From an uncultured Bacteroidales bacterium (GTDB lineage Bacteria; Bacteroidota; Bacteroidia; Bacteroidales; UBA1402): a stretch of DNA of 64,000 nt. Under the pieces are notes generated by a model. The model did no database searches. It was not told the origin of the DNA and saw only the letters and a program-made list of their open reading frames with translations. How positions within the stretch are numbered: position 1 is the first letter of the stretch; each line of letters begins with the position of its first letter. The stretch covers positions 2,321 to 66,320 of the forward strand of contig CAZCWK010000006.1 of assembly GCA_964502355.1 (NCBI GenBank), read 5' to 3'. The translations under genes were made by a program, and so were the position numbers. This document shows positions 14,886 through 32,201 of this stretch, one piece after another.

Positions 14886-16766
14886 TTATCCAAATAACTT
14901 ATTTATAAGGTCTTGTCTGTTCATTTTTCTTAGTTTTTTGATAATAATATCACGGTAATTTTTGTCATACCAGAAGAAATAATCTTTTTGCCCGGTTTTT
15001 TCCTGTTTGCTCTTTGCTGAGAATACGGGTTTAAGGGTATAAGGATCAAGGCCTGTATAAAACATTTCTGTAGCCAGGGTCATAGGTGTAGGCGTAAAAT
15101 CCTGTACTTGTTCTAGTCTGAAGTTAAGTCTGCGTGTTTCAACAGCCAGCTCAGCCATATCTTCTTCAGTACATCCGGGATGTGATGATATGAAATAGGG
15201 TATAAGTTGTTGTCTTCCGGTTTCAGCATGTTTTAATCTGCGATCTTCAAACTCATTAAACTTTTCTGTGAATTTTTTGAACTGATTAAAATCTGGTTTC
15301 CTCATAAGTCTGAGAACATTCTGGCTGGTATGTTCAGGAGCAACTTTTAATCTTCCGGATACGTGATTCTTCACAACTTCTTCCAGATATTCATAAGAAT
15401 AGTTCTTGTCATTTTCTTTAGCGAATGATTTTTCGTTTTTATTGTCAGATATTTTTTCTCCTACAATCAGATCATAACGTATTCCGCTTCCTATGAAGGA
15501 TTTTTTTATGCTGGGAACCGCATCGGCTGCTTTATATAAGTCTATTAATGGTTTGTGATTTGTATTAAGATTCCTGCATATTTTTGGATAAATACATGAA
15601 GGTCTTTTACAATTTCTGCATAAGCCCAAATCAAATCCCTGCATTTGATACATATTAGCTGACGGTCCACCCAAATCACTAAGATATCCTTTGAAATCCT
15701 CCATCTCCGATAGTTTCTTTATTTCATCAATAATGGATTCTTTACTTCTGCTTGTAATAAATTTGCCCTGATGAGCAGAAATAGTACAAAATGAACAGCC
15801 TCCGAAACATCCTCTGTGAATATTAACTGAGAATTTTATCATTTCATAAGCCGGGATGGTTTTGCCTTTATATTTTGGATGTGGAAGTCTGGTAAATGGT
15901 AAAGAATGCACTTTGTCAAGCTCTTCACCTTCCATTGGAGGGAAAGTGCCATTCACAACAATTTCAAGGTTTCCACATGATTGTATTATTCTGCTTGATT
16001 GATATTTGTTGGATTCCTCTTCAATTATTTTGAAGTTTTCAGCCTGATAAATCTTGTTTTTCAGGCATTCTTCATGTGAATGTAAATAAACCCATTCGTT
16101 TTGTCTTATTATTCCTTTCTGGTTATTGCCTTCATTTACACCAATATAAGCTGTCTGAGGGATGTCTTTCATTGATGAAATAGTTTCACCTTCCATAAAT
16201 CTTTTGCATAACTCAGCAAGCGGTTTTTCCCCCATACCATATACCAGCATATCTGCCTTGCTGTCAATGAGAATACCGGGCATTAATTTATCTGACCAGT
16301 AATCGTAATGAGTCAACCTTCTGAGAGATGCTTCTATACCTCCGATGATTACAGGAGTATCAGGAAATAATTTTTTTAATATCCCTGAATAAGTTATTGT
16401 GGCGTAATCCGGTCTCGAACCTGCTTTTCCACCGGCAGTGTATGCGTCATCCGAACGTAATCTTTTATTTGCGGTATAATGATTCACCATAGAATCCATA
16501 CAGCCGGCAGTAATGGCAAAGAAGTATTTTGGTTTGCCTAATTTGGTGAAATCTCTGTAATCACCTCTCCAGTCAGGTTGTGGAACCAATGCGACTTTTA
16601 GCCCAAATGATTCCATCAATCTTCCGATAACAGCAGCACCAAACGAAGGGTGATCAACATATGCATCACCTGAAAAGATTATAACATCAACTTCATTCCA
16701 ACCCCTGATTTCCAGTTCTTTTTTTGTGGTTGGCAACCAATCTGTTAGTCTGTAATTTTCTGCCAT
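14886..16766 (-). CDS. ygiQ: YgiQ family (UPF0313) radical SAM protein
   Basis: 626 aa. Radical SAM triad in CFGGCSFC. N-terminal MAENYRLTDWLPTT...VDVIIFSGDAYVDHPSFG is typical of YgiQ. Confidence 0.85.
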   Translation of the reverse strand: MAENYRLTDWLPTTKKELEIRGWNEVDVIIFSGDAYVDHPSFGAAVIGRLMESFGLKVALVPQPDWRGDYRDFTKLGKPKYFFAITAGCMDSMVNHYTANKRLRSDDAYTAGGKAGSRPDYATITYSGILKKLFPDTPVIIGGIEASLRRLTHYDYWSDKLMPGILIDSKADMLVYGMGEKPLAELCKRFMEGETISSMKDIPQTAYIGVNEGNNQKGIIRQNEWVYLHSHEECLKNKIYQAENFKIIEEESNKYQSSRIIQSCGNLEIVVNGTFPPMEGEELDKVHSLPFTRLPHPKYKGKTIPAYEMIKFSVNIHRGCFGGCSFCTISAHQGKFITSRSKESIIDEIKKLSEMEDFKGYLSDLGGPSANMYQMQGFDLGLCRNCKRPSCIYPKICRNLNTNHKPLIDLYKAADAVPSIKKSFIGSGIRYDLIVGEKISDNKNEKSFAKENDKNYSYEYLEEVVKNHVSGRLKVAPEHTSQNVLRLMRKPDFNQFKKFTEKFNEFEDRRLKHAETGRQQLIPYFISSHPGCTEEDMAELAVETRRLNFRLEQVQDFTPTPMTLATEMFYTGLDPYTLKPVFSAKSKQEKTGQKDYFFWYDKNYRDIIIKKLRKMNRQDLINKLFG

Positions 16767-19250
16767 TTATTCTAAATCTACGATTGTTATACCTGCACCA
16801 CCAAACTGAACATGTTCGTCGTGATAATCTTTAACTCCATTAACTGTACCGAGGTATTGTCTGATTAGTTGCCTGAGTACTCCGGTTCCTGTGCCGTGGA
16901 GTATCCTTACACGGCTGACACCTGTCATTATAGCATCATCAATGAAATATGTAATTGTCTGCAAGGCTTCATCACCTCTCATTCCTCTTACATCTATTTC
17001 TTGTTTAAATTGTAATTTTTTTTCTCTGATTTCGTCAGATGTTCGTCTGCCAATGGTTGTATATGGGTTGAGATTTTCTTTTTTGACAGTAGCATGTTCG
17101 ATTTCGTCTATTTTGACTTTTGTTTTAATCGAACCAAAGATTACCATTGCCTTGCCTTCTTTTATTGACAAGATTGAGCCTACAGCCTGTTGCCCTTTAA
17201 TTCTTACAGTATCTTTTATTTTGAATTCCGGTTTAAGGATAGGCTTTACAGTAAGCGAAGGATTAACATCCTTTTCTTTATGTTTTGGATTGAGTTTTCT
17301 TTCGTCTTTTCTTTTGATCTTATCAATTTTTCTTTTAATAAAATCGATTTCGTCGGTATTATCTGTGGATATAGTTTCTTTAAAATCCTGGATGTTTTTT
17401 CTGAGTAATTTGGTTTTTTCCTTTTCTGCCTGAGTCTCACGGATTTCCCTGACAGTGTTTTCAATTATTGAATTGGAATTTTCCAGAATTTTTTTTGCTT
17501 CATTCTTCGCATTCAGAATTATTTCTTTTTTCTTCTGACTTACATCATTTAGTTCATTTTCAATCTTTTCATACAATTCCTCAGACTTTTTCTCCTGTAT
17601 CCTGATTTGTTGTCTTTTGTTTTCCCAATATCGTTTATCCCTTACAATGTCCTGCAAATATTTGTCTATATCAATATACTCTGAACCAACTATCTGTGAA
17701 GCCTTTTCAATCACTTCTTCAGGTAGTCCGATCTTTCTGGCAATTTCAACAGCAAAAGAACTTCCGGGTCTTCCGGTTTCTAACAAAAAAAGAGGTTTCA
17801 TCTCATTCCTGTCGTAAAGCATTGCCCCGTTAAATATGCCTTCGTGGTCATCAGCGTAATGTTTAAGATTGCTGTAATGAGTTGTAATAATGCCGAATGA
17901 TTTTTGTTTATTAAACTTTTCAAGACATGCTTCAGCTATAGCTCCTCCGATTTTTGGTTCAGTGCCACTTCCGAATTCATCAATTAATATAAGTGTTTTT
18001 CCGTTACCATTTTTCAGGAAATACTTCATGTTCAAAAGATGTGAACTATATGTACTTAAATCATTTTCAATGGATTGTTCATCGCCAATATCAACAAAAA
18101 TACTCTCAAAACATCCTGTCAATGAACTTTCATGAACAGGTATCAACAAACCGCACTGTAGCATGTATTGCAGTAAGCCGACTGTTTTCAAGCAAACCGA
18201 TTTACCACCTGCATTAGGACCTGAAATTATGAGAATTCTGTTTTTGTCATTGAGCTTTACTGATAATGGTACTATTTTTCTTTGTTGTTTTTTAAGTGAA
18301 ATGTCAAGCAGGGGATGTATGGCTTTATTATATTCAATACATGGTTCATTTATAAAATCTGGTTTAATTGCTCCTATGGTTTTCGAAAAAATCGATTTTG
18401 CTCTGAGGAAATCTATTTCAGCAAGTAACTCATATGAACTAATCATCTCAATTGCAAATGGTCTGATCTTATCTGTAATCTGTATCAAAATCTTAATAAT
18501 CTCACGTCTCTCTTCATTCTGAAGCTCTCTTATTCGGTTGTTGATTTCAACAAGTTCTTCAGGCTCAATGAAAATAGTTTTTCCTGTAGCGGATTCATCA
18601 TGTACAATACCCTTAATCTTTCTTTTATACATCGGTGAAACCGGTAAAACCAACCGGCCTTCTCTCATACCGGGAACAGTATCTTTATCCACAAATCCAT
18701 CCAATTGAGCCTTTCTCAGGATTTGACTCATCTTTCTTGAAACACTGTTGCTGGTAGATGATAATTCTTTCCTGATATTTGAAAGTTCAGGTGATGCATT
18801 ATCTTTAATTTCACCTTCAGGTGTTAAAATCGTATCAACCTTTTTAATGATTTCAGGAAATACAGGCGTTTCAGAAGCAAGCAGACTTAAACAAGGATAT
18901 TTATTTGTTTTATCTTCATTTTTAAAGAATACTACAATTTTCCTGATTGATTCCAATGATTGTCTTAATGCCAAAAGCTCTGATTCATCAAGCCAGATGC
19001 CTTCAATTCTGATTTTTTTTAGCGAAGGTTTTAAATCGTAAAAGTGACAATCCGGGAAAGTATCTTCTTCGTTTGATATATTCTGGTATTCCTGAGCTCT
19101 TCTCAGATACTCAAGTATGGTTTCATATTTGCTTGAAAATGAGATTTTATCAACTTTTTCTGAACCAAGAGTACTTAAACATTCATTTTTTAAGTACTGC
19201 CTGATCTGGTCAAATCCTATTTTTTGTTCGAAATGTATTGGATAAATCAT
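16767..19250 (-). CDS. mutS2: endonuclease MutS2 (MutS domain V ATPase + C-terminal Smr domain)
   Basis: Walker A GPNAGGKS. C-terminal Smr (VRILHGTGTGVLR). The track start 19322 adds 24 unlikely residues; the ATG at 19250 gives MIYPIHFEQKIGF. Its stop codon directly abuts the ygiQ start. Confidence 0.9.
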   Translation of the reverse strand: MIYPIHFEQKIGFDQIRQYLKNECLSTLGSEKVDKISFSSKYETILEYLRRAQEYQNISNEEDTFPDCHFYDLKPSLKKIRIEGIWLDESELLALRQSLESIRKIVVFFKNEDKTNKYPCLSLLASETPVFPEIIKKVDTILTPEGEIKDNASPELSNIRKELSSTSNSVSRKMSQILRKAQLDGFVDKDTVPGMREGRLVLPVSPMYKRKIKGIVHDESATGKTIFIEPEELVEINNRIRELQNEERREIIKILIQITDKIRPFAIEMISSYELLAEIDFLRAKSIFSKTIGAIKPDFINEPCIEYNKAIHPLLDISLKKQQRKIVPLSVKLNDKNRILIISGPNAGGKSVCLKTVGLLQYMLQCGLLIPVHESSLTGCFESIFVDIGDEQSIENDLSTYSSHLLNMKYFLKNGNGKTLILIDEFGSGTEPKIGGAIAEACLEKFNKQKSFGIITTHYSNLKHYADDHEGIFNGAMLYDRNEMKPLFLLETGRPGSSFAVEIARKIGLPEEVIEKASQIVGSEYIDIDKYLQDIVRDKRYWENKRQQIRIQEKKSEELYEKIENELNDVSQKKKEIILNAKNEAKKILENSNSIIENTVREIRETQAEKEKTKLLRKNIQDFKETISTDNTDEIDFIKRKIDKIKRKDERKLNPKHKEKDVNPSLTVKPILKPEFKIKDTVRIKGQQAVGSILSIKEGKAMVIFGSIKTKVKIDEIEHATVKKENLNPYTTIGRRTSDEIREKKLQFKQEIDVRGMRGDEALQTITYFIDDAIMTGVSRVRILHGTGTGVLRQLIRQYLGTVNGVKDYHDEHVQFGGAGITIVDLE

Positions 19251-19450
19251 AAAGCCCCGACCGAAATTTATATTTACAAATATAATACTAATAACTGAGC
19301 TGTATTGTTCTGAAAAAAACAATTAAATCTTATATATGTACTTAGTATTCACGTTCTAATCGGCATAGCAATAATGATATTTAATTGCTTTTAATCAATT
19401 AATGTTTATTTTTGTTATACCATAAACACACAAACATCATTGTTTTTATC

Positions 19451-22252: not shown

Positions 22253-22939
22253 TTATTCAACAGTCATCATATAACCCGTTCCACGCATAGTCTTAATTTG
22301 AACCCGTGGATCGGGAGCAAGATATTTTCTTAACGTATAAATAAATGCATCAAGCCTTTGTTGTGTGTAAAACTTAATGCCTCCCCAGATAAGTTCGGCT
22401 ATTTCTTCTTTAGAAACCAGCTGGTTCATTTTTTTACACAAAAGTTCTAATAAATATGCTTCACGCATAGATAAATGAACATCACCATTAGATGAATGAA
22501 GTACCTGTAATTTAGCATCAAAGCCCATATTTCCCAAATGATATATGTTTTCTGATTTATCCTCAGATTTTATACCTGTCCTTTTTATAAGTCCCTGTAG
22601 ATAAGCATGAAGCTCATCAGGTAAAAAAGGTTTTTTAATATAATTATCAATGCCGATTTTATATGCTTCCAGTATTATTTTACTGGAAGTTACGCATGTT
22701 TCAAGTATGATTGGAATATCGGCATCCTTTTCTCTGATCTTTCTTGCAAAATCAAGACCACTCATTATAGGCATTTCAACATCAGATACAATTACGTCGG
22801 GTTGGAACTCTTCATACGCTCTCAATCCTTCAACAGGATTAACAGACCACTGAACATCATATTCGCCTATAAGTTCCATTCCTTCTTTTATAATGAAGCC
22901 CAAAACTTCATCATCTTCAACCAACAATAACTTGATCAT
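22253..22939 (-). CDS. OmpR/PhoB-family response regulator
   Basis: 228 aa. Receiver domain (DVIVSDVEMPIMSG, KKPF) plus a winged-helix C-terminus (MRGTGYMM). Lies 4 nt downstream of the kinase gene. Confidence 0.85.
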   Translation of the reverse strand: MIKLLLVEDDEVLGFIIKEGMELIGEYDVQWSVNPVEGLRAYEEFQPDVIVSDVEMPIMSGLDFARKIREKDADIPIILETCVTSSKIILEAYKIGIDNYIKKPFLPDELHAYLQGLIKRTGIKSEDKSENIYHLGNMGFDAKLQVLHSSNGDVHLSMREAYLLELLCKKMNQLVSKEEIAELIWGGIKFYTQQRLDAFIYTLRKYLAPDPRVQIKTMRGTGYMMTVE

Positions 22940-22943
22940 ATAA

Positions 22944-24245
22944 TCAATTTTTATATAAATCTATTATAAATTCACTGCCAACGCCTTCTGTACTATCTAC
23001 CATAATAGAGCCCTTATGGGCTTTAATAACTTTCTGGACGTAATTTAATCCTATACCAAAACCATCAATACCTTTTATATCTACTTTATTACCTCTTTCA
23101 AAATTGTCAAATATGTGTTTGATTTCTTTTTCTGAAATTCCAAACCCATTATCCTTGATATGAATCTTGAGTTTATCTGATTGACATTCACATATAATCT
23201 GAATTTTTATAGTTGATTCTGAGTATTTTATCGCATTATCTATGAGATTACTCAAAACATTTTCCATTAATGTCGGATCAAAATTCCAGACTATATTTTC
23301 CTGATTGTAACTGGTAGTAATTTCAAGATTTTTTTGTCTGTAATTATTCAATCTATAACTCTCTGCAATTTTCTCAATATATGGTTGTAATGTTACTACT
23401 TCATAGTCCGGAATAATTGCTGAATGTTCTGCTTTTGCAACCAATAGTATCCTTTCAACAGTTTTCAATAATTTTGAACTTTGATCTTTACATATTTGAT
23501 AATGTTTTTGTCTTGACTCCAGGTTACCTTCAAGCTTTCCGGAAGTCAGCATGGATGAAGACATGTATATACCACTTATAGGAGTTTTTAATTCATGAGT
23601 AAGAGCATGTGTGTATTCTTTAAGAAATGTTACAAACTTACTTTCTCTAAGCATTCCCTGTAACTGAATGATTAAAATTACACCAATCAATACAGCCAGA
23701 AACAAAGATATTATCAATATTAACTGTGCTTCCCGCAATACTGAACGAATAGGTGAAATGAGAGTTACTTTTAAATATTGATCTTCTGTAATCTTATTAT
23801 ATAAGGTGTATTTAGAATAAGTGCTTTTAATTCTGGTAGAATCATCAACCATCTTTACTGTATAATTCAACTTTTCATTCAAACTATTATCAAGGTTCTG
23901 GCTAATTAATGTATCCAGGCGTGAAACTGAACAGGGGAGACCCAGCATTTTTGATAGTTCTTGCAGGCTAGTGTTTATGTCGATTGATTTACTGACTTGA
24001 TTATCTGTAAGAACCACGTCATCATTATCTAAAATATTTTTTTCTTGAACATTTAAATTAATAGATTTTTTTTCAAGTCTTTCATATAACTCAGATTCAA
24101 CAGCTTTATCAATGCTTTCTTTGCATTTTACCAAAAGATTATGCTCCATAAGGTCAAAAGAATTTTTAAACCAGATATATTGCAGTACCAGTAACAGCAG
24201 TATGCCAACGATTGATACGATTCTGATAGATTTAGTCTTGAACAT
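22944..24245 (-). CDS. sensor histidine kinase (two TM helices flanking a periplasmic domain, HisKA + HATPase_c)
   Basis: H-box THELKTPISG, N-box LIDNAIKYS, G-boxes DNGFGIS and GFGIGLNYV. The track start 24272 is TTG; the first ATG is at 24245. Confidence 0.85.
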   Translation of the reverse strand: MFKTKSIRIVSIVGILLLLVLQYIWFKNSFDLMEHNLLVKCKESIDKAVESELYERLEKKSINLNVQEKNILDNDDVVLTDNQVSKSIDINTSLQELSKMLGLPCSVSRLDTLISQNLDNSLNEKLNYTVKMVDDSTRIKSTYSKYTLYNKITEDQYLKVTLISPIRSVLREAQLILIISLFLAVLIGVILIIQLQGMLRESKFVTFLKEYTHALTHELKTPISGIYMSSSMLTSGKLEGNLESRQKHYQICKDQSSKLLKTVERILLVAKAEHSAIIPDYEVVTLQPYIEKIAESYRLNNYRQKNLEITTSYNQENIVWNFDPTLMENVLSNLIDNAIKYSESTIKIQIICECQSDKLKIHIKDNGFGISEKEIKHIFDNFERGNKVDIKGIDGFGIGLNYVQKVIKAHKGSIMVDSTEGVGSEFIIDLYKN

Positions 24246-24297
24246 TATAATTTCATATTGAGGTGTATGCAAATATAAATGATTATTTAAAAACTTG

Positions 24298-24328
24298 CTC
24301 AGGTTAAATAAGGTTTTACTCAGATTAA
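24298..24328. promoter_or_regulatory. direct repeats CTCAGGTTAA / CTCAGATTAA (21-bp register) and AGGTT/AGGTT (10-bp register)
   Basis: CTCAGGTTAA at 24298-24307 and CTCAGATTAA at 24319-24328. AGGTT at 24301 and 24311. They sit in the divergent region between the kinase operon and the peptide gene. Confidence 0.4.
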
Positions 24329-24355
24329 CTAAGATTTCTTTTTAGGATAGACGCA

Positions 24356-24388
24356 ATCTTATATCTTATTTTTGTAAAAAATAAGATA
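24356..24388. promoter_or_regulatory. heptamer repeats (ATCTTAT x2 direct, x1 inverted) forming a perfect 12-bp inverted repeat that embeds a -7 box
   Basis: ATCTTAT at 24356-24362 and 24363-24369; its complement ATAAGAT at 24381-24387. Inverted repeat TATCTTATTTTT (24362-24373) / AAAAATAAGATA (24377-24388). TATTTTTG (24367-24374) matches TAnnTTTG, 44 nt upstream of ATG 24418. Confidence 0.5.
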
Positions 24389-24417
24389 CAGCATTAAAAA
24401 CTATAAAACACCCTGTT

Positions 24418-24564
24418 ATGAAAACAATTTTTAATTCAACCAAAAGCAACAAGAAAAATTTTGAAGTTATCTCAAGTGAAGAAATGAAACAGGTTCAAGG
24501 TGGTGTTCGCGTGATTGCTATCAGAGATGGTGAAGGAAATATAAGAGTAGTTATCATACCTTAA
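24418..24564 (+). CDS. double-glycine-leader precursor peptide (48 aa), bacteriocin/RiPP/peptide-signal candidate
   Basis: Below the ORF-track cutoff. My translation: MKTIFNSTKSNKKNFEVISSEEMKQVQGG|VRVIAIRDGEGNIRVVIIP. The leader fits the GG-leader consensus (hydrophobic at -4, -7, -12, -15; E at -8; S at -11). A C39-peptidase ABC exporter lies downstream. Confidence 0.8.
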   Translation: MKTIFNSTKSNKKNFEVISSEEMKQVQGGVRVIAIRDGEGNIRVVIIP

Positions 24565-24584
24565 GATTATTAAATATAATTAAT

Positions 24585-24761
24585 ATGGGAACAATAAATT
24601 TCCACGCAGAACGCCTGTTCTTTAATCCAATTTTAGATCCTATTTCTAATTTCAGGTCTCTCTACGGCATTGAAATTGAAGAAAATAGTCAGAATCTGTT
24701 AAACAGGTATATTTCACGTTCTGTAAATGATGCAAAGACTTACAAAGTAGTCATATTGTGA
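24585..24761 (+). CDS. hypothetical 58-aa protein (unannotated small ORF)
   Basis: ATG 24585 to TGA 24759-24761. Translation: MGTINFHAERLFFNPILDPISNFRSLYGIEIEENSQNLLNRYISRSVNDAKTYKVVIL. It starts 20 nt after the peptide gene and ends 5 nt before the SPASM gene. No recognisable motif. Confidence 0.45.
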   Translation: MGTINFHAERLFFNPILDPISNFRSLYGIEIEENSQNLLNRYISRSVNDAKTYKVVIL

Positions 24762-24766
24762 TTTAG

Positions 24767-25762
24767 ATGTATCGGTATTTTAACCTTTATTCGTTTTGTA
24801 TTCCTGTTAAGGGGATAAAAAGGGCGGTCGTCTGCGATTTGCAGCGTAATATTATTCAACCTATACCTCTGTTGCTCTTTGAATATCTCGAGAAACTTAA
24901 AACAGTTGATGAACCTTTGGAAATGTTAGATACTTATACTAACATTGAGAGGAATACAATCAATGAGTATATCAACTTCTTATATTATAATCAGTTCGGT
25001 TTTTTTACAACAAATAAGCCGATTGCTCCTGACATCCCGACAATTGAATATTCTGATGATAGTCAAATTACAAATGCAATTGTGGACTTTAACAGAAATT
25101 CGGAACATTCTTTAGAAAATATTCTTGGTCAGTTATCTGAATTGGGATGTAAGGCTATTGAAATAAGATATTTTTATCCAATACCTTTTACTCATTTTTT
25201 AGATTCATTAATCGTTGCAAATAATTGCCAGGTTGAAAAAATCGAATTTTTACTCCAGAAAAATGAGGAAATTAACTGGAACAAAATTCTTCAGTTAAAT
25301 ATTCAATTTCCAAAACTAAAAAAAGTTACTATAAGTAATTCTGCAGACAATATTATCTACAAACATGAGGACCTTGTAGTAATATATACTACTGAGATAA
25401 TCAGGAATGAGACAAAATGCGGTGTTACAGGTGAGCTTTATTGTATAGCTGATAACAGATTATTCTGGGAATCTCAGAATTTTAATAATTGTCTTTACAA
25501 AAAAATATCAATTGACAAATCCGGATTAATAAAGAATTGTCCTTCCATGCAGGAAAGCTTCGGAAATATACAATTCACTAAGCTATCTGATGTAATTTCA
25601 GATGAATCTTTTAAAAAATTCTGGACCATAACTAAGGATTCGATTGAGATTTGCTCAGAATGCGAACTAAGATATGTTTGTCAGGATTGCAGAGCTTATA
25701 CAATAAATATGAACAATCCTTTTTCCAAACCTCTGAAATGCAGATATAATCCTAAAGAATAG
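24767..25762 (+). CDS. SPASM-domain protein lacking the radical-SAM Cys triad (pseudo-radical-SAM / SPASM-only peptide-maturase-like)
   Basis: 331 aa. The C-terminus has a full 7-Cys SPASM pattern: CLYKKISIDKSGLIKNC (C-x10-G-x4-C), CSECELRYVCQDC (C-x2-C-x5-C-x2-C), and a final C in KCRYN. No CxxxCxxC occurs anywhere in the protein. Confidence 0.75.
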   Translation: MYRYFNLYSFCIPVKGIKRAVVCDLQRNIIQPIPLLLFEYLEKLKTVDEPLEMLDTYTNIERNTINEYINFLYYNQFGFFTTNKPIAPDIPTIEYSDDSQITNAIVDFNRNSEHSLENILGQLSELGCKAIEIRYFYPIPFTHFLDSLIVANNCQVEKIEFLLQKNEEINWNKILQLNIQFPKLKKVTISNSADNIIYKHEDLVVIYTTEIIRNETKCGVTGELYCIADNRLFWESQNFNNCLYKKISIDKSGLIKNCPSMQESFGNIQFTKLSDVISDESFKKFWTITKDSIEICSECELRYVCQDCRAYTINMNNPFSKPLKCRYNPKE

Positions 25763-25794
25763 CTGCAAATTTATATAAAATGTAATTGTTTGTT

Positions 25795-25802
25795 TAAATT
25801 TG
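25795..25802 (+). promoter_or_regulatory. candidate internal -7 promoter box (TAnnTTTG)
   Basis: TAAATTTG lies 40 nt upstream of the exporter ATG at 25842, in the 79-nt gap after the SPASM gene. Confidence 0.3.
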
Positions 25803-25841
25803 AAATATTATACAATTGCATTAAGAATCTAAACCCTTGTA

Positions 25842-28055
25842 ATGAAAAGCTTTCATTTTATTTCACAGTTGGATGCCATGGATTGCGGACCAACCTGCCT
25901 ATTGATGATATCAAAATTTTATGGGAAATCTTTTGATTTACAGGATTTAAGACAAAGAGCATCAATAAATAAACTTGGAACTAATCTGCTTGGCCTCAGT
26001 GAAGCTGCTGATTCATTAGGTTTTGAAGCAACCGGAGTTAAAGTTTCAGAAGATCAATTGATTGAGGATGTCCCACTGCCATGTATTCTTCACTGGAAAC
26101 AAAATCATTTTGTTGTATGTTACGACATTAAAAGGAAAAGGAATGGATCAGTGATTTTTTTAATTGCTGATCCTGCTACCGGATTAGTAAAGTATGATAA
26201 AAATGAAATCAGAAATAACTGGATAAGTTCCGGAAATTCAAATGAAAATGGAAATAAGGGAGTTGCATTGATTCTTCAACCTACAAATGTCTTTTTTGAT
26301 ATTGCAGAAGAAAAACCAAATGGAAAAAACAAGATAATCCCTTTTATTAATTATTTAAAACCGTATAAGAAGCATATTTTACAGATCATTGTAGGTATGG
26401 TAGCTATCAGCATTTTACAGTTGATTTTACCGTTTCTTACTCAGGTTTTGGTCGATATTGGTATAAAAGATGGCAATTTAAATTTCATAAAAATCATCCT
26501 CATTACCCAGCTTTTAATTTTTATTGCGAGATTATCTGTGGAATTTATCAGAGGATGGTTATTGTTACATATTAATACAAGGATAAGCATATCTCTTATT
26601 TCAGATTTTCTGATTAAAATCATGAAAATGCCTCTGAAATTTTTTGATACTAAAACAATAGGGGATATATTACAAAGGATAAGCGATCACAAAAGGATAG
26701 AATCTTTTTTAACAGGCAATTCGGTTACCTTACTATTTTCACTCATTAATTTTTTTGTATTTTCCTTAGTGCTTGGTTATTATAAATTTAGCCTGCTGGC
26801 TTTATTTTTATTAGGAAATACAATTTACGTTGTGTATGTTCTGTTTTTTATGAAATACCGCAAAAACCTCGACAATAAAAAATTTGAACTTTCTGCTGAA
26901 GAACAAGGTAATTTGATACAGATGGTTTCCGGTATGCAGGATATAAAACTAGGTAACTGTGAAAATCAAAAAAGATGGAAGTGGGAGCAAATTCAGGTAA
27001 GATTATTTAATATTAATGTCAAAAATCTTGCATTAGGACAAATTCAACAAATCGGTTCAGTCTTTTTTAGTCAGCTTACCAACATTCTGATTACGTTTAT
27101 TGCTGCTAAATCTGTGGTAGATGGCGAAATAACTTTGGGTATGTTGATGTCAGTAAGTTTTATACTGGGTCAGTTAAGTGCTCCTATTGATCAGTTTCTT
27201 GGATTTTTTCAGACATTCCAGGATGCAAAACTTAGTCTGGAACGGTTGAATGAGATTCACGGCAAAAATGATGAGGAACAGGATTCTATGAAAAAGCTTG
27301 AAGAGATATCCGGTAAAAGGAACATTATAATTTCGAATCTTAGTTTTGGATATGAACATGCTGAAAGAGATTTTATTTTAAGGGATCTGAATCTTGTGAT
27401 TGAAGAAAATAAAGTTACTGCGATCGTTGGTTCCAGCGGAAGTGGTAAAACTACATTGATAAAATTATTACTCGGTTTTTACGAACCTCAAAAAGGTAGT
27501 ATATGTATTGGTGATACTAATCTGAATAATATTAATCCTCACTACTGGAGGAATTGTACAGGCTCGGTATTGCAGGATGGTTATATTTTTTCTGAAACAA
27601 TAGCCGAAAATATTGCATTAGGTGATACTGAGATTAATAACGAAAAACTGAATAAAGCTGTAAATATTTCAAATATTAAAGATTTTATTTACTCTTTACC
27701 TCTAAAGTTCAATACAAAAATCGGTACTGATGGGCATGGTTTAAGTCAGGGACAGAAGCAAAGAATTTTAATAGCCAGGTCTGTTTACAAAAATCCGGAT
27801 TTTTTGTTTTTTGATGAAGCAACAAATGCACTTGATGCTTCAAATGAAAAGGAAATAATGGAAAATCTTGATTCTTTCTACAATGGAAAAACTGTAATCA
27901 TTGTAGCACACAGGCTAAGTACAGTCAGAAATGCAGATAAAATTGTTTTTATTGAAAATGGTCAGATTATTGAAGAGGGTAATCATGAGGAACTGACTTC
28001 GCTTCGGGGAAAATATTACAATCTTGTAAAGAATCAGTTGGAGCTTGGTAATTAA
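25842..28055 (+). CDS. peptidase-containing ABC transporter (PCAT; C39 peptidase + ABC TMD + NBD), bacteriocin/peptide exporter
   Basis: 737 aa. C39 catalytic Cys in QLDAMDCGPTC and His in HWKQNHFVV. Six-TM region. Walker A GSSGSGKTT, signature LSQGQKQR, Walker B FLFFDEATNALD, H-loop VAHRLS. Confidence 0.9.
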   Translation: MKSFHFISQLDAMDCGPTCLLMISKFYGKSFDLQDLRQRASINKLGTNLLGLSEAADSLGFEATGVKVSEDQLIEDVPLPCILHWKQNHFVVCYDIKRKRNGSVIFLIADPATGLVKYDKNEIRNNWISSGNSNENGNKGVALILQPTNVFFDIAEEKPNGKNKIIPFINYLKPYKKHILQIIVGMVAISILQLILPFLTQVLVDIGIKDGNLNFIKIILITQLLIFIARLSVEFIRGWLLLHINTRISISLISDFLIKIMKMPLKFFDTKTIGDILQRISDHKRIESFLTGNSVTLLFSLINFFVFSLVLGYYKFSLLALFLLGNTIYVVYVLFFMKYRKNLDNKKFELSAEEQGNLIQMVSGMQDIKLGNCENQKRWKWEQIQVRLFNINVKNLALGQIQQIGSVFFSQLTNILITFIAAKSVVDGEITLGMLMSVSFILGQLSAPIDQFLGFFQTFQDAKLSLERLNEIHGKNDEEQDSMKKLEEISGKRNIIISNLSFGYEHAERDFILRDLNLVIEENKVTAIVGSSGSGKTTLIKLLLGFYEPQKGSICIGDTNLNNINPHYWRNCTGSVLQDGYIFSETIAENIALGDTEINNEKLNKAVNISNIKDFIYSLPLKFNTKIGTDGHGLSQGQKQRILIARSVYKNPDFLFFDEATNALDASNEKEIMENLDSFYNGKTVIIVAHRLSTVRNADKIVFIENGQIIEEGNHEELTSLRGKYYNLVKNQLELGN

Positions 28056-28069
28056 TAAAAAATGTTCGA

Positions 28070-28585
28070 ATGAATCAAAATGATATAGAAAAAAGGTCAG
28101 GGGAAGTACAAAAACTGATGAATCAAATACCCGGTAAAATACTCATATGGGGAAATACGATAATTCTTTTTATAGTAATTAGTTTAATAATAATTGCCTG
28201 TTTTTTTAATTATTCAGAAGTAGTAAAATCTGATATCATAATTAATACTACCAGAACCGGTCATAATACATATGTGAATAAAGGGTTATTATTATTGAAT
28301 TTTGAAGGATCAGATAAAATCAGAAAAGGTTATCCTGTAGAAGTCCGTATTGATAACTATCTTGGACATAAACAAGGTCATATTAAAGGTGTTATAACAG
28401 CAATATGTACTAATAATTTAAATAGTGAGTTTGGAGAAGCTCATATAAATTTCTCCCGGACTGTGGTAGCTGATAACCATAAATATTTACCGGACTCTAT
28501 TGTGTTTCGTGGCAATGCGAAAATAATAGTTGGAAAAACCAGGTTTTTAACAAAAATAAAGCTGGCTTTGAAAAAGAAATCATAA
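28070..28585 (+). CDS. HlyD-family adaptor-like protein, unusually short (171 aa; no coiled-coil hairpin)
   Basis: The N-terminus (RSGEVQKLMNQIPGKILIWGNTIILFIVISLIIIACFF) and C-terminus (GNAKIIVGKTRFLTKIKLALKK) resemble the ends of about 400-aa Bacteroidota bacteriocin HlyD proteins (from memory). The central helical region is absent. Confidence 0.55.
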   Translation: MNQNDIEKRSGEVQKLMNQIPGKILIWGNTIILFIVISLIIIACFFNYSEVVKSDIIINTTRTGHNTYVNKGLLLLNFEGSDKIRKGYPVEVRIDNYLGHKQGHIKGVITAICTNNLNSEFGEAHINFSRTVVADNHKYLPDSIVFRGNAKIIVGKTRFLTKIKLALKKKS

Positions 28586-28593
28586 TAAAGGTA

Positions 28594-30012
28594 TTAAGCT
28601 ATAGGTATCTTAATAAGAAATTCAGTTCCAACATGTTCTTTGCTTGTAACCAGAATATCGCCTTTATGAGCCTTCACAACTTTTTTTACAAAACTTAAAC
28701 CAATACCGTATCCCATAATACTGCTTCTTTCAACTTTGCTACCCCGGTTGAAATTTTTAAAAATTTCATCCAAATCCTGAGCTGAAATTCCCATACCATT
28801 ATCGGATATTTTAATATTGAGGTTATTATTATCCTGCCGGCATTCAATATCAATATTTAGTGATTCATATGAATATTTGATAGAATTATCTATCATGTTG
28901 TAAAAAACTATCTCAAATTTGTCTTTGTCTATACAGGCTTGCAGATTTTCCGGATTACATATAAAACTAAACTTCACTTCTTTGTTTTGCACTGAGACAG
29001 ACTCTTTGTAATAACAGATTATTTCATTAACAAATTCGTTAATTTTTACAAATTTCTTTGTTAAAACAAGTTCACCTCGTTCTTCTTTTGCCAAAAGAAG
29101 TAGTCTGTGAATACTCCGGATTTGTTTTTCGCATTGTTCTTTGAATAGTTTATAATACTTGCTGCGTAACTCTTCGCTTTTATCAAAATTACCCATTTTC
29201 AACATATCAGAAACGTACATTATATTGTTTAACGGAGTCTGCATATCGTGAGTTACTGCGCTGGTATATTCCTTTAAAAATTGAATTTTAAGATGCTCTT
29301 TATTTAATGATCTTATTTGAAGAATGATAATCAGTATAACAAACATTACAATAAAAAGAGAAGTAAAGAATAAGCGTCGTATTTCTTTGTAGTGTATTAC
29401 AGATTTAAGATCAAGATTCATTTCAATTACCTGTACACTGTTTAACCTGATAAGAATATGGTTACCTTGTATGCTATCATATACCAGATTTGTATTAGAG
29501 CTAACTTCAGAAGTTGTTTTTTTGGTATTTCTACCCTTAGTAGAATCACTGATTAAACCTGAAATCTGAAAGTTTTTTAATTGAACAGAATCATTTTTGA
29601 TTGAAATATTATATTCCGGTAAAAAGCCAATTTTATTTGTAATAATACTTTTATATATAGAATCAATTTTAGATATATCAGGTTTAATACCCATAAGATA
29701 TGATGATTCATATAAAAATATTATCATATCTCCGGTTTTAGACGCCATACCACTAGCAATAACTTCTCCGTCAGTAACAAATGTATCTTTGACTAAACTT
29801 ATTTTACTGTCAGCTAAAACATCTGTTCTTTCAATCAATTCAATATCTGCCGCTTCCCTAAGGCTCGTTTTGCATTTCTCCATCATATCTTTTGATGTGG
29901 ATTCAAATGCTTGTAAAAACCAGTTATACTGCAGTATTAATAGTAATAAAACGCACAATATGGGTAATACATGCATTGATATGTAAACCAGTTTGTTCTT
30001 ATTTATTTTCAT
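28594..30012 (-). CDS. orphan sensor histidine kinase, paralog of 22944-24245
   Basis: 472 aa with the same architecture as the other kinase. TM1 LLLLILQYNWF compares with LLLLVLQYIWF. H-box VTHDMQTPLNN; NMIDNSIKYS; SDNGMGIS; GYGIGLSF. No adjacent response regulator. Confidence 0.85.
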   Translation of the reverse strand: MKINKNKLVYISMHVLPILCVLLLLILQYNWFLQAFESTSKDMMEKCKTSLREAADIELIERTDVLADSKISLVKDTFVTDGEVIASGMASKTGDMIIFLYESSYLMGIKPDISKIDSIYKSIITNKIGFLPEYNISIKNDSVQLKNFQISGLISDSTKGRNTKKTTSEVSSNTNLVYDSIQGNHILIRLNSVQVIEMNLDLKSVIHYKEIRRLFFTSLFIVMFVILIIILQIRSLNKEHLKIQFLKEYTSAVTHDMQTPLNNIMYVSDMLKMGNFDKSEELRSKYYKLFKEQCEKQIRSIHRLLLLAKEERGELVLTKKFVKINEFVNEIICYYKESVSVQNKEVKFSFICNPENLQACIDKDKFEIVFYNMIDNSIKYSYESLNIDIECRQDNNNLNIKISDNGMGISAQDLDEIFKNFNRGSKVERSSIMGYGIGLSFVKKVVKAHKGDILVTSKEHVGTEFLIKIPIA

Positions 30013-30111: not shown

Positions 30112-30582
30112 TTATTTCATCTTTTTTGTAAGTTTCTGAATATCTTCCATAGTCATGTTTCCATTCATTTGTATGATGACAAATTCGTCAGGTTCATCAA
30201 CCAACATTACAAGTTCAGAAATCAGAGTTTCAGATTTTTTCTTGACATAAAAATTTACATTGGATCCATCATCTTTGATTTTCATAAGTATTTCATATGC
30301 CGGATTGTTATGAAAGTGGGAAGTTTCCGTACGCATCATTTTTGCTATTCCGGGATTTTCAGAAGTCAGTATTAAAATACCTGATAGTTTTCCTGCAAAA
30401 TCTCCTATGTCCATTCCATTTTGGATTTTCATACCAGGCATCATTTGAAGCATTGATTTTGAAATAAATACAGAAGTAACTCCTTCCATCTCAGAAAACT
30501 TATCAAACAATTTATTTTGGGCAAAGCAATTGCCTGTAATCAGAACCATCAGTAAAGCAATTATTATATTCTTTGTTTTCAT
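30112..30582 (-). CDS. DUF4252 domain-containing secreted protein
   Basis: 156 aa with a signal peptide. The pattern LFDKFSEMEGVTSVFISKSML...ILILTSE...FVIIQMNGNMTMEDIQKL is typical of DUF4252, as I recall that family. Confidence 0.7.
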   Translation of the reverse strand: MKTKNIIIALLMVLITGNCFAQNKLFDKFSEMEGVTSVFISKSMLQMMPGMKIQNGMDIGDFAGKLSGILILTSENPGIAKMMRTETSHFHNNPAYEILMKIKDDGSNVNFYVKKKSETLISELVMLVDEPDEFVIIQMNGNMTMEDIQKLTKKMK

Positions 30583-30592
30583 ATAGTTATTA

Positions 30593-31183
30593 TTATTTGT
30601 TATTAGTAATCTTTTTAATTTGTTTGTCTAATATCTTATTGGATTTTTCAATTTTATTTGTTGCATTCTCCATTTGTTCAAATCCTGTATTTAAGTTCTC
30701 AGCGACCAAAGCAAGAGCTTTTTGAGTTTCAACGTAAGCTTTAGCCGGATCATTAAAAGTATCAGCATAGTTTTGAGTATCATTTTTCTTAACTACGGCA
30801 AATGTTATTGCAAATATTATTAGGGCACATGCTGCGATTGTTGACATAATTGTCCATGGCGAATACAGAAATACATTTTTTCTTTTTGGAGGCTTTATAT
30901 CAGGATTTATTCTTTCTGATATTGCTTTTTCACTATAGCTGGAATTGTTATTTTCGGAATTTTCAGAAAGTTTATCAATCATAGAGTTTAAATCAAACTC
31001 CAGGGATTCAGGTACGTTTATCACTTCGTTTTCATAACAAGCTAAAAATATTTTCTTGTCATCCATCAGTTCATCTGGTACATTATCCTTACTGAAGAAT
31101 TCATACAATTCTTTTTCTTGTTCGTTTGTGGTATTCCCATCATAAAACTCTGAAATTAGCTTTTTTATATGTTGAGTTCTCAT
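30593..31183 (-). CDS. putative anti-sigma factor (single-pass membrane protein)
   Basis: 196 aa. Cytoplasmic N-terminus, one TM (WTIMSTIAACALIIFAITFAVV), immediately downstream of the ECF sigma gene. Assignment is by context only. Confidence 0.4.
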   Translation of the reverse strand: MRTQHIKKLISEFYDGNTTNEQEKELYEFFSKDNVPDELMDDKKIFLACYENEVINVPESLEFDLNSMIDKLSENSENNNSSYSEKAISERINPDIKPPKRKNVFLYSPWTIMSTIAACALIIFAITFAVVKKNDTQNYADTFNDPAKAYVETQKALALVAENLNTGFEQMENATNKIEKSNKILDKQIKKITNNK

Positions 31184-31187
31184 TGTT

Positions 31188-31745
31188 TTATAGTGTAATG
31201 TTTAGACAATATTCATTATTATTTTCTACTTTATAATTCAATTCTCTGTTATAGAATGAATTATAATTTTCTTTAATAAACTTTCTACTTCTTGACAGAA
31301 TAACTCTGATATTGACAGCGCTTAATCCTGTAATCGCTTCAATTTCTTCAAAACTGTAATCATCATAGTGTCTTAATTTAAATACAAGCTTACTTTGCTC
31401 AGGCATTTTTTCGACAATCTTGTTAATAATACTTAGTGACTCATTGGTTTCAAAATCAGTAATTATTGACGAACTGTCAGACTTTTCCACATTTTGCAAA
31501 TCAAGCGAGTTCATTTTGTTTCTTGATGATCTCAAAATATCCATGCAGAGATTTCTAACCATTACTATGCAAAAGGATTCAGGATTTCTGAGTAATTCAA
31601 GCTCATCTCTTTTTTCCCACAACTTAACGTAAGTTTCCTGAACTACATCCTCTGCATCTGATGAATCTTCAAGAAGGCGATAGGCCATTCTGTAAAGTTT
31701 CTTATGTAAAGGAATAAATACTCCTTTGAAAGTAGTTGCATCCAT
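31188..31745 (-). CDS. ECF-type RNA polymerase sigma-70 factor
   Basis: 185 aa. Region 2 (DAEDVVQETYVKLW) and region 4 HTH (SFEEIEAITGLSAVNIRVILSRSRKFIK). Confidence 0.85.
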   Translation of the reverse strand: MDATTFKGVFIPLHKKLYRMAYRLLEDSSDAEDVVQETYVKLWEKRDELELLRNPESFCIVMVRNLCMDILRSSRNKMNSLDLQNVEKSDSSSIITDFETNESLSIINKIVEKMPEQSKLVFKLRHYDDYSFEEIEAITGLSAVNIRVILSRSRKFIKENYNSFYNRELNYKVENNNEYCLNITL

Positions 31746-31748
31746 TTA

Positions 31749-32201
31749 TCAATTGTTACATGCAAATTTTTGAACATCAGTTAAAGAAAAGCTGCCTTTA
31801 ATTCTGATATAAGCTGAATCATCACCGGTTACTAAAATGACGATTTCGTTAAAATGATCATTATAGTTTTTGGCCATAATCTTTACAAACTCGTCATCTT
31901 CTTTCACCTGAATAAGAGTTTCGTACAATTCATCATCAACATATCTGACTCTGTCACCATATTCTTCTTTTACATGCCTGTCACATTCACTCAAATCCAG
32001 AACCTGTAATGATTTTATTTTCAGGCCACTAAATTCTTTTTGTGATATGAATGGTCTTATCACTGACATGACAAAACGATTAAGATTTACTTTTTCAACA
32101 TTCCGGGCATATGAAAAATCCTTAAAAATATCACTCACAGATTCTGCCTGAATATTGAGGACGCTGATAAAAATTGTTGCTATAAATAAAATACGTTTCA
32201 T
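31749..32201 (-). CDS. DUF4252 domain-containing secreted protein
   Basis: 150 aa with a signal peptide. C-terminal VILVTGDDSAYIRIKGSFSLTDVQKF fits the DUF4252 pattern. First gene of the ECF operon. Confidence 0.65.
   Translation of the reverse strand: MKRILFIATIFISVLNIQAESVSDIFKDFSYARNVEKVNLNRFVMSVIRPFISQKEFSGLKIKSLQVLDLSECDRHVKEEYGDRVRYVDDELYETLIQVKEDDEFVKIMAKNYNDHFNEIVILVTGDDSAYIRIKGSFSLTDVQKFACNN

Follow-up and report, generated by a model that had tools for sequence, protein, structure and literature searches.

A ligase-less clade of grasp-with-spasm loci in Bacteroidales and its possible role in peptide autoinduction

What can a locus be for that encodes a double-glycine (GG) peptide, a SPASM-domain protein and an exporter, with neither an ATP-grasp ligase nor a dedicated radical S-adenosylmethionine (SAM) maturase beside them? 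The question is raised by a module of genes in a 64 kb stretch of DNA from an uncultured Bacteroidales bacterium (the window, by which we mean the whole stretch that was examined), where an earlier reading of the letters, here called the original prediction, had proposed either a stripped-down peptide modification pathway or the export of an unmodified peptide with the SPASM protein as a leader-binding chaperone. We find that the SPASM protein is, by its profile score, a bona fide member of the known family TIGR04193, and the phylogeny and gene content of related loci show that it belongs to a clade which descends from a grasp-with-spasm graspetide cluster and has secondarily lost the ligase. 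What remains could be an autoinduced exported peptide system, a reading drawn from sequence comparison which we judge to have an even chance of being right. The module, its flanking regulators and the elements between them are as follows.

22253..22939, minus strand: OmpR-family response regulator with receiver and Trans_reg_C domains (Pfam Response_reg 1e-21, Trans_reg_C 8e-16)
22944..24272, minus strand: upstream sensor histidine kinase, divergent from the peptide operon (Pfam HisKA and HATPase_c)
24298..24336, plus strand: four tandem direct repeats MTMAGRTT, a putative OmpR-type regulator box between the divergent promoters
24363..24387, plus strand: palindrome ATCTTATTTTTGTAAAAAATAAGAT, an inverted repeat with a Bacteroidetes-type -7 element TAnnTTTG, near-invariant in the clade
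24418..24564, plus strand: precursor peptide of 48 aa, consisting of a 29-aa double-glycine leader and the 19-aa core VRVIAIRDGEGNIRVVIIP (TIGR01847)
24585..24761, plus strand: small partner protein of 58 aa, in the position that the LPL family protein takes in graspetide branch 5
24767..25762, plus strand: TIGR04193 SPASM-domain protein of 331 aa (258.7 bits)
25842..28055, plus strand: peptidase-containing ABC transporter (PCAT) of 737 aa, with C39 peptidase, transmembrane and nucleotide-binding domains (Pfam C39, ABC_membrane, ABC_tran)
28070..28585, plus strand: mini-HlyD of 171 aa, matching the HlyD profile in two blocks
28594..30012, minus strand: second sensor histidine kinase, convergent, with no adjacent regulator (Pfam HisKA and HATPase_c)

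The anatomy claimed in the original prediction was recovered. All five co-directional open reading frames (ORFs) lie where it had placed them; the 48-aa peptide has its double-glycine leader (GG at residues 28-29, TIGR01847 passed), the 58-aa ORF stops 5 nt short of the SPASM gene, the 331-aa protein combines a complete SPASM Cys signature with the absence of CxxxCxxC, the C39 ABC exporter keeps its catalytic Cys and His (C15 and H89, with Q9 also present), and the HlyD-like nature of the 171-aa adaptor is borne out both by the two-block profile match and by BLASTP to full-length HlyD. The order peptide, small ORF, SPASM, PCAT, HlyD is repeated in 43 other loci, and the arrangement is therefore far beyond chance.

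The SPASM protein matches NCBIfam TIGR04193 (GwsS) with E = 9.6e-77, its 258.7 bits standing well above the cutoff of 175 and residues 4-329 aligning to profile positions 1-327 of 342; this is a family that the original prediction had named correctly. GwsS proteins are common in Bacteroidota graspetide clusters. The SPASM motifs read C242-x10-G-x4-C258, C296-x2-C-x5-C-x2-C308 and C325. Neither the window protein nor any of the 130 family members collected carries a CxxxCxxC triad, and the missing SAM cluster is thus a trait of the family rather than a peculiarity of this locus. The idea of a stripped-down pathway consequently survives in part: the loss of the ligase is real across the whole clade, whereas the absence of CxxxCxxC is family-wide and already named. 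The literature terms the TIGR04193 protein a radical-SAM enzyme despite its absent SAM cluster, and biochemistry of the family was not found there.

The comparison set comprised 80 loci from genomes and 80 from metagenomes in addition to the window, the metagenome loci having been retrieved with the clade alignment as query after a single-protein query returned none. The clade is defined as the window plus 43 loci (designated, like the rest, by L numbers) whose SPASM identity to the window is at least about 47%. In most loci an ATP-grasp ligase of family TIGR04192 is encoded shortly before the SPASM gene (scores of 280.7 and 241.4 bits, with a cutoff of 230), and outside the clade the ligase adjoins the SPASM gene in 111 of 117 loci, the remaining six all having <800 nt of upstream sequence. 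Six-frame profile searches, by which 17 high-GC loci were scored, found the ligase in all of these and in L054 and L056. Within the clade it was found in none of the 44 loci, in flanks of up to 10 kb. A canonical maturase consistently linked to homologous clusters, which the original prediction had considered would make the locus a known family member, is therefore a property of the wider family and not of the window's own clade. Its claim that the window holds no ATP-grasp ligase was upheld by tblastn and profile searches of all 64 kb (best tblastn E 0.22, best profile E 1.5; positive control E = 0), and no ligase remnant was detected in the window or in L001-L008. The gap between the precursor and the small ORF, the slot that normally holds the ligase gene, is 20 nt in the window.

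In a neighbour-joining tree the clade forms a single bipartition with 100/100 bootstrap support, lying seven nodes from the midpoint root, and each successive sister group is ligase-associated. As the clade is nested among these groups, the ligase was lost once, in the clade ancestor. No description of a ligase-less clade was found in the literature, and in public annotation "grasp-with-spasm system" is the name given to the SPASM protein and "hypothetical protein" that of the small ORF. Applied to ligase-less proteins the former label is an annotation problem, and because annotation ignores the missing ligase, members of the clade will wrongly be sorted among graspetide clusters by genome-mining tools.

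Among described graspetide loci, those of branch 5 in Bacteroidetes combine GG precursors with ATP-grasp, PCAT, HlyD and a "cluster 23" protein, and a small LPL family protein always lies directly upstream of their TIGR04193 protein (Makarova et al. 2022, PMC8939145). The clade resembles grasp-with-spasm systems (TIGR04192 GwsG with TIGR04193 GwsS) in its SPASM family, upstream small protein, similar GG leader, downstream PCAT and HlyD, Bacteroidota host and absent radical-SAM Cys triad. It differs from them in having neither the ATP-grasp (0/44), which is their defining feature, nor the 'cluster 23' protein; in its hydrophobic, Cys-free beta-hairpin core, where theirs are Thr/Ser- and Asp/Glu-rich and often contain Cys; in the response regulator and the two or three paralogous kinases that always flank it; and in its extra C226 and sometimes hairpin-less HlyD. 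Two ligase-containing loci, L035 and L037, carry two or three tandem ATP-grasp/SPASM pairs each, the pair duplicating as one unit.

The precursor scores 16.1 bits against TIGR01847 (cutoff 15.7), and its leader, which ends in GG, has hydrophobic residues at -4, -7, -12 and -15. Homologous precursors with a conserved leader (MKT...EE[LM]K...GG) are present in 35 clade loci, 37 have the small protein immediately before the SPASM gene, and both were found at every clade locus with sequence available, so that the conservation of the small ORFs brings no refutation of the cluster. The cores by comparison are hypervariable, on a constant plan of a hydrophobic strand, a (D/N)x(D/E)G turn and a second hydrophobic strand; the window core has a DGEG turn between its strands, and several clade cores contain NPDG, a classic hairpin-turn sequence. 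Cys occurs in none of the 31 distinct clade cores, and the window core is built only of V, I, R, A, D, E, G, N and P, with no Ser, Thr, Lys, Trp or Tyr. This residue composition makes thioether, omega-ester/amide and aromatic cross-links impossible on the window core, and any modification that it does receive cannot, as far as its predicted sequence goes, be a thioether or an omega-ester/amide. The nearest ligase-containing relatives join a similar leader to Thr/Asp-rich graspetide cores (e.g. YTANTVTIPGGTDDGDDGIRND directly after the GG), and the comparison suggests that the core was replaced at ligase loss and the leader retained. One subclade (L093-L099, L111, L006, L100 and L101) has a C-terminal tail of ~10-15 residues after the hairpin, rich in Ser, Phe and Tyr (e.g. 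...RPGVVSSYLKSFFSRD) and absent from the window precursor, which may act as a follower peptide or form another functional region.

These data bear on whether the locus might still be a graspetide pathway, its ATP-grasp encoded elsewhere and acting in trans. Such a pathway would suit a SPASM family that is otherwise almost always paired with a ligase. However, it would have to explain why the ligase is present in 0/44 clade loci within up to 10 kb when it is adjacent in 111/117 others, why the clade cores have lost the Thr-rich/Asp-rich design of their nearest ligase-linked relatives, how omega-ester or omega-amide macrocycles could form on a window core with no Ser, Thr or Lys, and why only 20 nt separate the precursor and small ORF at the usual ligase slot; we consider it very improbable.

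The small partner protein is harder to place. The small proteins of clade and ATP-grasp loci share a C-terminal K-x-I-S-[KR] motif, and their profiles match weakly, hhalign giving a probability of 29% and E = 6e-4 across no more than 14 columns; no clear N-terminal LPL motif is seen in the 58-aa protein. We therefore regard it as a positional and probably homologous counterpart of LPL, not a proven member of that family. Its C-terminus (...KTYKVVIL) resembles the second strand of the core (...NIRVVIIP), which might reflect strand pairing or mimicry with the substrate, or coincidence.

What the SPASM protein itself could contribute is suggested by its cysteines and its predicted fold. Eight Cys are invariant or nearly so (C218, C242, C258, C296, C299, C305, C308 and C325) and would suffice, by their predicted ligation, for two auxiliary [4Fe-4S] clusters. 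C11 and C23, in the N-terminal domain, and C128, in barrel strand 2, are conserved family-wide, and C226 is diagnostic of the clade, occurring in 100% of members and 0% of outsiders, which usually have Phe there. C11, C23, C128 and C226 are candidate ligands that could form an extra metal site or an alternative SAM cluster. The C218-x7-C226 spacing results from the clade-specific gain of C226.

In the AlphaFold (AF2) model of the protein (pLDDT 78.8) an N-terminal domain of three strands and three helices (strands 4-33, then helices 35-74) is followed by a partial (beta/alpha) barrel and the SPASM region. The best Foldseek matches of the model are CteB, TigE and SuiB, maturases that combine a RiPP recognition element (RRE) with radical-SAM and SPASM domains, and the N-terminus aligns to the RRE protein TbiB1 (5v1v) over 81 columns with a target TM-score of 0.58 and E = 0.07; the protein is unmatched by Pfam PqqD. 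The model thus points to an RRE-like N-terminal domain and to a degenerate radical-SAM barrel from which the SAM cluster has gone. With CteB (5wgg/5why), SuiB (5v1q) and TigE (8vpo) the protein shares the RRE-like, (beta/alpha) barrel and SPASM fold and the full Cys ligation set for two auxiliary clusters. It differs from all three in having neither CxxxCxxC nor the usual SAM-binding motifs, at an identity of 10-12%, and from CteB and SuiB in its substrate, which has no Cys for the chemistry of the former and, in the window core, no Lys or Trp for that of the latter. Searches for relatives in the PDB by sequence profile returned YmcA/RicA (E = 0.075 and 0.37), which are at chance level only and were rejected.

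Selection was gauged from the ratio of nonsynonymous to synonymous divergence (dN/dS) by a crude Nei-Gojobori method, the dN/dS and dS figures comparing the window with L001 unless stated otherwise. Values are 0.05 for the response regulator, 0.08 for the SPASM gene and 0.09 for the PCAT, and the 58-aa ORF shows 12 synonymous and 0 nonsynonymous differences; from these low ratios and the small-ORF pattern it follows that the module genes are functional and constrained, and every one of them is under purifying selection. The clade is therefore a natural experiment, in which a SPASM protein and its small partner remain under strong purifying selection in the absence of the ligase, and because the window core also lacks Cys, Ser, Thr, Lys and aromatics, the intrinsic function of the SPASM protein becomes directly testable.

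The PCAT matches PF03412 (C39, 1e-29), PF00664 and PF00005, its Q9, C15 and H89 are invariant in 34/34 clade homologs, and its Walker A, signature LSQGQ and Walker B are intact. The 171-aa protein has no Pfam or NCBIfam match; it aligns to HlyD profile positions 7-71 and 334-429 of 434 (E = 1.3e-22) and, again in two blocks, to the full-length HlyD of L003 by BLASTP. Profile positions 72-333, some ~260 residues containing the lipoyl domain and the coiled-coil hairpin, have been deleted in frame, with retention of the cytoplasmic tail, transmembrane (TM) helix and C-terminal beta-barrel. The protein is thus derived from an HlyD, without the hairpin that defines the reach of the adaptor to the outer membrane. 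Most clade HlyDs are 434-440 aa long and a form of 171-185 aa is found in seven loci including the window, while L114 has a partial deletion of ~100 residues that looks like an intermediate stage. At least four different boundaries are seen, one set each in the window with L001, in L002, in L007 and in L100/L101/L112, and the hairpin has therefore been lost several times independently. With a dN/dS of 0.36, constraint on the mini-HlyD is relaxed and not gone. On one reading outer-membrane reach would be dispensable, for example because the peptide acts in the periplasm beside the kinase sensors; repeated in-frame loss of the HlyD hairpin is in any case unusual, and hints at the peptide's site of action.

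The loss of a key enzyme, together with an internally deleted HlyD under relaxed constraint, is also what would be expected if the cluster were a decaying, non-functional graspetide remnant. Of all the explanations considered this is the one in which we place the least belief, since the module has been kept in 44 loci with SPASM identity down to 47%, purifying selection is strong on SPASM, PCAT and response regulator and especially on the small ORF, the catalytic residues Q9, C15 and H89 are intact, promoter and repeats are conserved, and the HlyD deletions are all in frame with both flanking domains kept.

A functional module then has to be read together with its regulators. The upstream kinase is the immediate neighbour in 32/32 clade loci with at least 1.2 kb of upstream sequence, the OmpR-type regulator coming next, and the regulator accompanies the module in 17/17 clade loci having full flanks. 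In both kinases a periplasmic domain of roughly 150-190 aa is bracketed by two TM helices; in the upstream kinase, the true start of which is probably the ATG at 24245, the helices lie at residues 15-33 and 184-202 with about 150 aa between them. The downstream kinase is a paralog of the upstream one (32% identical full-length), and its position is filled in nearly all clade loci by one or two convergent paralogs. Nine loci (L090, L095, L101, L102, L103, L104, L108, L110 and L115) have two tandem downstream kinases and hence three kinases per regulator, and the sensor domains of these are the most divergent part of the module.

The divergent intergenic region of 145 bp contains two conserved elements. 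The first is the set of four MTMAGRTT repeats, spaced by 10/11/10 bp, which is unique in the window (0 expected by chance) and begins at 24298, exactly where the original prediction had set the start of its cluster. In the clade the repeats hold fixed positions at -66, -56, -45 and -35 relative to the -7 box, and direct repeats in helical phase are the usual binding architecture of OmpR/PhoB-family regulators. The second, the palindrome at 24363-24387, is likewise unique in the window and almost unchanged in clade loci with SPASM identity of only 47-66%. No coding sequence of the module is as strongly conserved as this element, which overlaps the -7 box and may be a candidate operator of a second regulator and not simply a promoter. 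A scan for sigma-70 promoters and terminators was uninformative, promoter-like sites being fewer than in shuffles and the promoter type inapplicable to Bacteroidota.

Indirect support for a link between the peptide and the kinases comes from the way in which they diverge, hypervariability being confined to the peptide and the sensor-coding DNA. In a subclade with 90-94% identity in SPASM, small protein and PCAT, identity falls to 34% in the core; for the upstream kinase of the same subclade it is 70% in the sensor and 91% in the kinase domain, and for the downstream kinase 49% and 70%. With the kinase domain partialled out, core identity is correlated with that of the upstream sensor (partial Mantel r = 0.36, p = 0.0002), while the converse partial test gives r = -0.06 and the PCAT is unlinked to the core. 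Synonymous divergence behaves similarly, with dS of ~0.9-1.0 in the precursor and the sensor half of the upstream kinase and 0.3-0.4 elsewhere (0.90 for the sensor half and 0.36 for the kinase half of that gene). In sliding-window comparisons of several independent pairs, valleys of identity in precursor and sensor DNA flank a conserved promoter island; between L100 and L101, for example, identity is 100% in the promoter, 48% in the precursor and 56-75% in the sensor, and drops to 38%, lower than in any other DNA of the module, at the sensor end of the downstream kinase. By analogy, this pattern resembles that of pherotype loci, of which agr and comCD are examples.

We therefore favour, as a plausible account, a loop in which the exported peptide induces its own operon. 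An ancestor would have lost the ATP-grasp ligase and exchanged its Thr/Asp-rich core for a short, Cys-free, self-folding beta-hairpin. The OmpR-type regulator would bind the four repeats at 24298-24336 and drive the operon from the -7 promoter, and probably also the divergent kinase-regulator operon. The RRE-like domain of the SPASM protein, acting with the 58-aa partner, would recognise the double-glycine leader, and the PCAT would cut after GG and export a hairpin of ~19 aa. Sensing of this peptide by the periplasmic domains of the flanking paralogous kinases would close the autoinduction loop. Where the HlyD hairpin is deleted, as in the window, release of the peptide would probably be mainly periplasmic. 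The tightly packed operon contains a single GG peptide and no immunity-like gene.

Double-glycine peptide and two-component autoinduction is a hallmark of Gram-positive bacteria, in which ComC/ComAB/ComDE, BlpC/BlpAB/BlpRH and PlnA/PlnBCD form pheromone circuits with a polytopic HPK10 kinase and a LytTR regulator. The module shares with these circuits a GG-leader peptide, a PCAT with an accessory protein, an adjacent kinase and regulator, direct repeats upstream of the peptide promoter, and hypervariable peptide and sensor around conserved DNA. It differs in its diderm host, its 2-TM periplasmic-sensor kinases and OmpR-type regulator, its Fe-S SPASM protein and small partner, and its extra orphan paralogous kinases. 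By analogy the locus would thus work most like a Gram-positive double-glycine pheromone circuit, while its descent is from grasp-with-spasm. To our knowledge, peptide self-signalling is rare in Gram-negative bacteria, and if the proposal is true the module extends Gram-positive autoinduction logic to an ecologically dominant Gram-negative order.

Several observations weigh against this account. No positive selection on the core or precursor can be claimed: dN/dS is 0.25-0.37, and synonymous sites are nearly saturated. The core is correlated with the regulator as well (r = 0.44), and since the sensor DNA adjoins the peptide gene, the core-sensor correlation is confounded by linkage and recombination blocks; for the downstream kinase it falls to r = 0.06 after control for the kinase domain, and kinase sensor domains generally evolve fast. 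The 2-TM kinases and OmpR-type regulator are unlike the HPK10 and LytTR proteins of the classical double-glycine pheromones. For cell-to-cell signalling a peptide of ~2 kDa must cross the outer membrane twice, and a TolC-like gene is absent from the module. Finally, autoinduction leaves unexplained the redox or catalytic function that is implied by the SPASM protein's conserved Fe-S ligands. While the findings on lineage and anatomy are solid, we accordingly see the arguments for and against the autoinduction mechanism as about balanced. A more far-reaching version, in which the locus would perform pheromone quorum sensing with pherotypes in a diderm, the SPASM protein and 58-aa partner would be the sole maturase with a chemistry that is neither radical-SAM nor thioether nor ester, and some of the paralogous periplasmic-sensing kinases might eavesdrop on foreign peptide variants, strikes us as rather unlikely.

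The hairpin, small and amphipathic or hydrophobic, might instead be primarily an antagonistic toxin, akin to a bacteriocin or microcin and exported by PCAT and HlyD, with the two-component system responding to other cues or the toxin inducing itself as nisin does. We think this doubtful, and take it seriously as an alternative. A GG leader with PCAT and membrane fusion protein is standard in class II microcins (PMC12219008) and bacteroidetocins (PMC6671954), with which the module also shares a Gram-negative host and the lack of an obvious immunity gene. Hypervariable cores behind conserved leaders are typical of bacteriocins too, and most clade members retain a full-length HlyD, suited to secretion across two membranes. 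The single peptide gene and the absence of an immunity or TM-protein gene from the module argue the other way, although bacteroidetocin producers likewise have no immunity genes (PMC6671954). In bacteroidetocins (class IIf, Coyne et al. 2019, PMC6671954) the leader is 15 aa long and the mature peptide, of 42 aa, contains four Cys, whereas the window core is Cys-free and, at ~19 aa, far shorter than these or the microcins. Their regions encode a TM protein along with a thiol oxidoreductase and are free of kinases, the term 'histidine kinase' being absent from the text of the paper (PMC6671954); the operon studied here has neither of those genes, the module includes a two-component system as well as the SPASM protein with its small partner, and its invariable coupling to two or three kinases with hypervariable sensors has no counterpart in bacteroidetocin regions. 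Repeated loss of the HlyD hairpin is also hard to square with extracellular secretion of a toxin.

One further candidate for a role in the pathway lies to the left of the module.

14886-16766, minus strand: YgiQ-family radical-SAM gene (PF08497, PF04055 and DUF3362)

The original prediction had stated that no radical-SAM maturase accompanies the cluster. This is right in that the window has no dedicated radical-SAM/SPASM partner; the window does, however, hold one gene with CxxxCxxC, this YgiQ-family housekeeping neighbour. YgiQ could in principle supply radical chemistry in trans, in the manner of the GG-Bacteroidales system, where TIGR04150, which we take to be a pseudo-radical-SAM protein, is paired with the radical-SAM protein TIGR04148. 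The window's SPASM protein is alike in concept, being a radical-SAM-like protein without a SAM cluster at a Bacteroidales GG-peptide locus; TIGR04150 was not among the NCBIfam matches at E <= 0.1. YgiQ encodes the only CxxxCxxC protein in the window and is in the flanks of 16/17 clade loci (MutS2 in 17/17). It is nevertheless a slow-evolving, widespread housekeeping family, with 8000+ hits, among them cultured Parabacteroides at 64-65% identity. RRE and SPASM domains are both absent from it, and in the window a GH2 gene lies between it and the module. MutS2-YgiQ is found without the module in L163 and L164, and the Parabacteroides genomes L161 and L162 have YgiQ alone in unrelated contexts. 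Because the pair occurs without the module, its adjacency reflects a conserved chromosomal position and not a partnership; a role of YgiQ in trans was rejected as the principal explanation, and it would come as a considerable surprise.

YgiQ and MutS2 together occupy 14886-19322 on the minus strand, and the flank to the right of the module is not conserved across the clade. The module seems to be anchored at one chromosomal site across a lineage with SPASM identity of only 47%. On the right, directly upstream of the downstream kinase and on the same (minus) strand, the interval 30112-32201 contains two DUF4252 genes and those for an ECF sigma factor and a putative anti-sigma factor; these could be co-transcribed with the kinase, and the window has this arrangement in common with L001 only.

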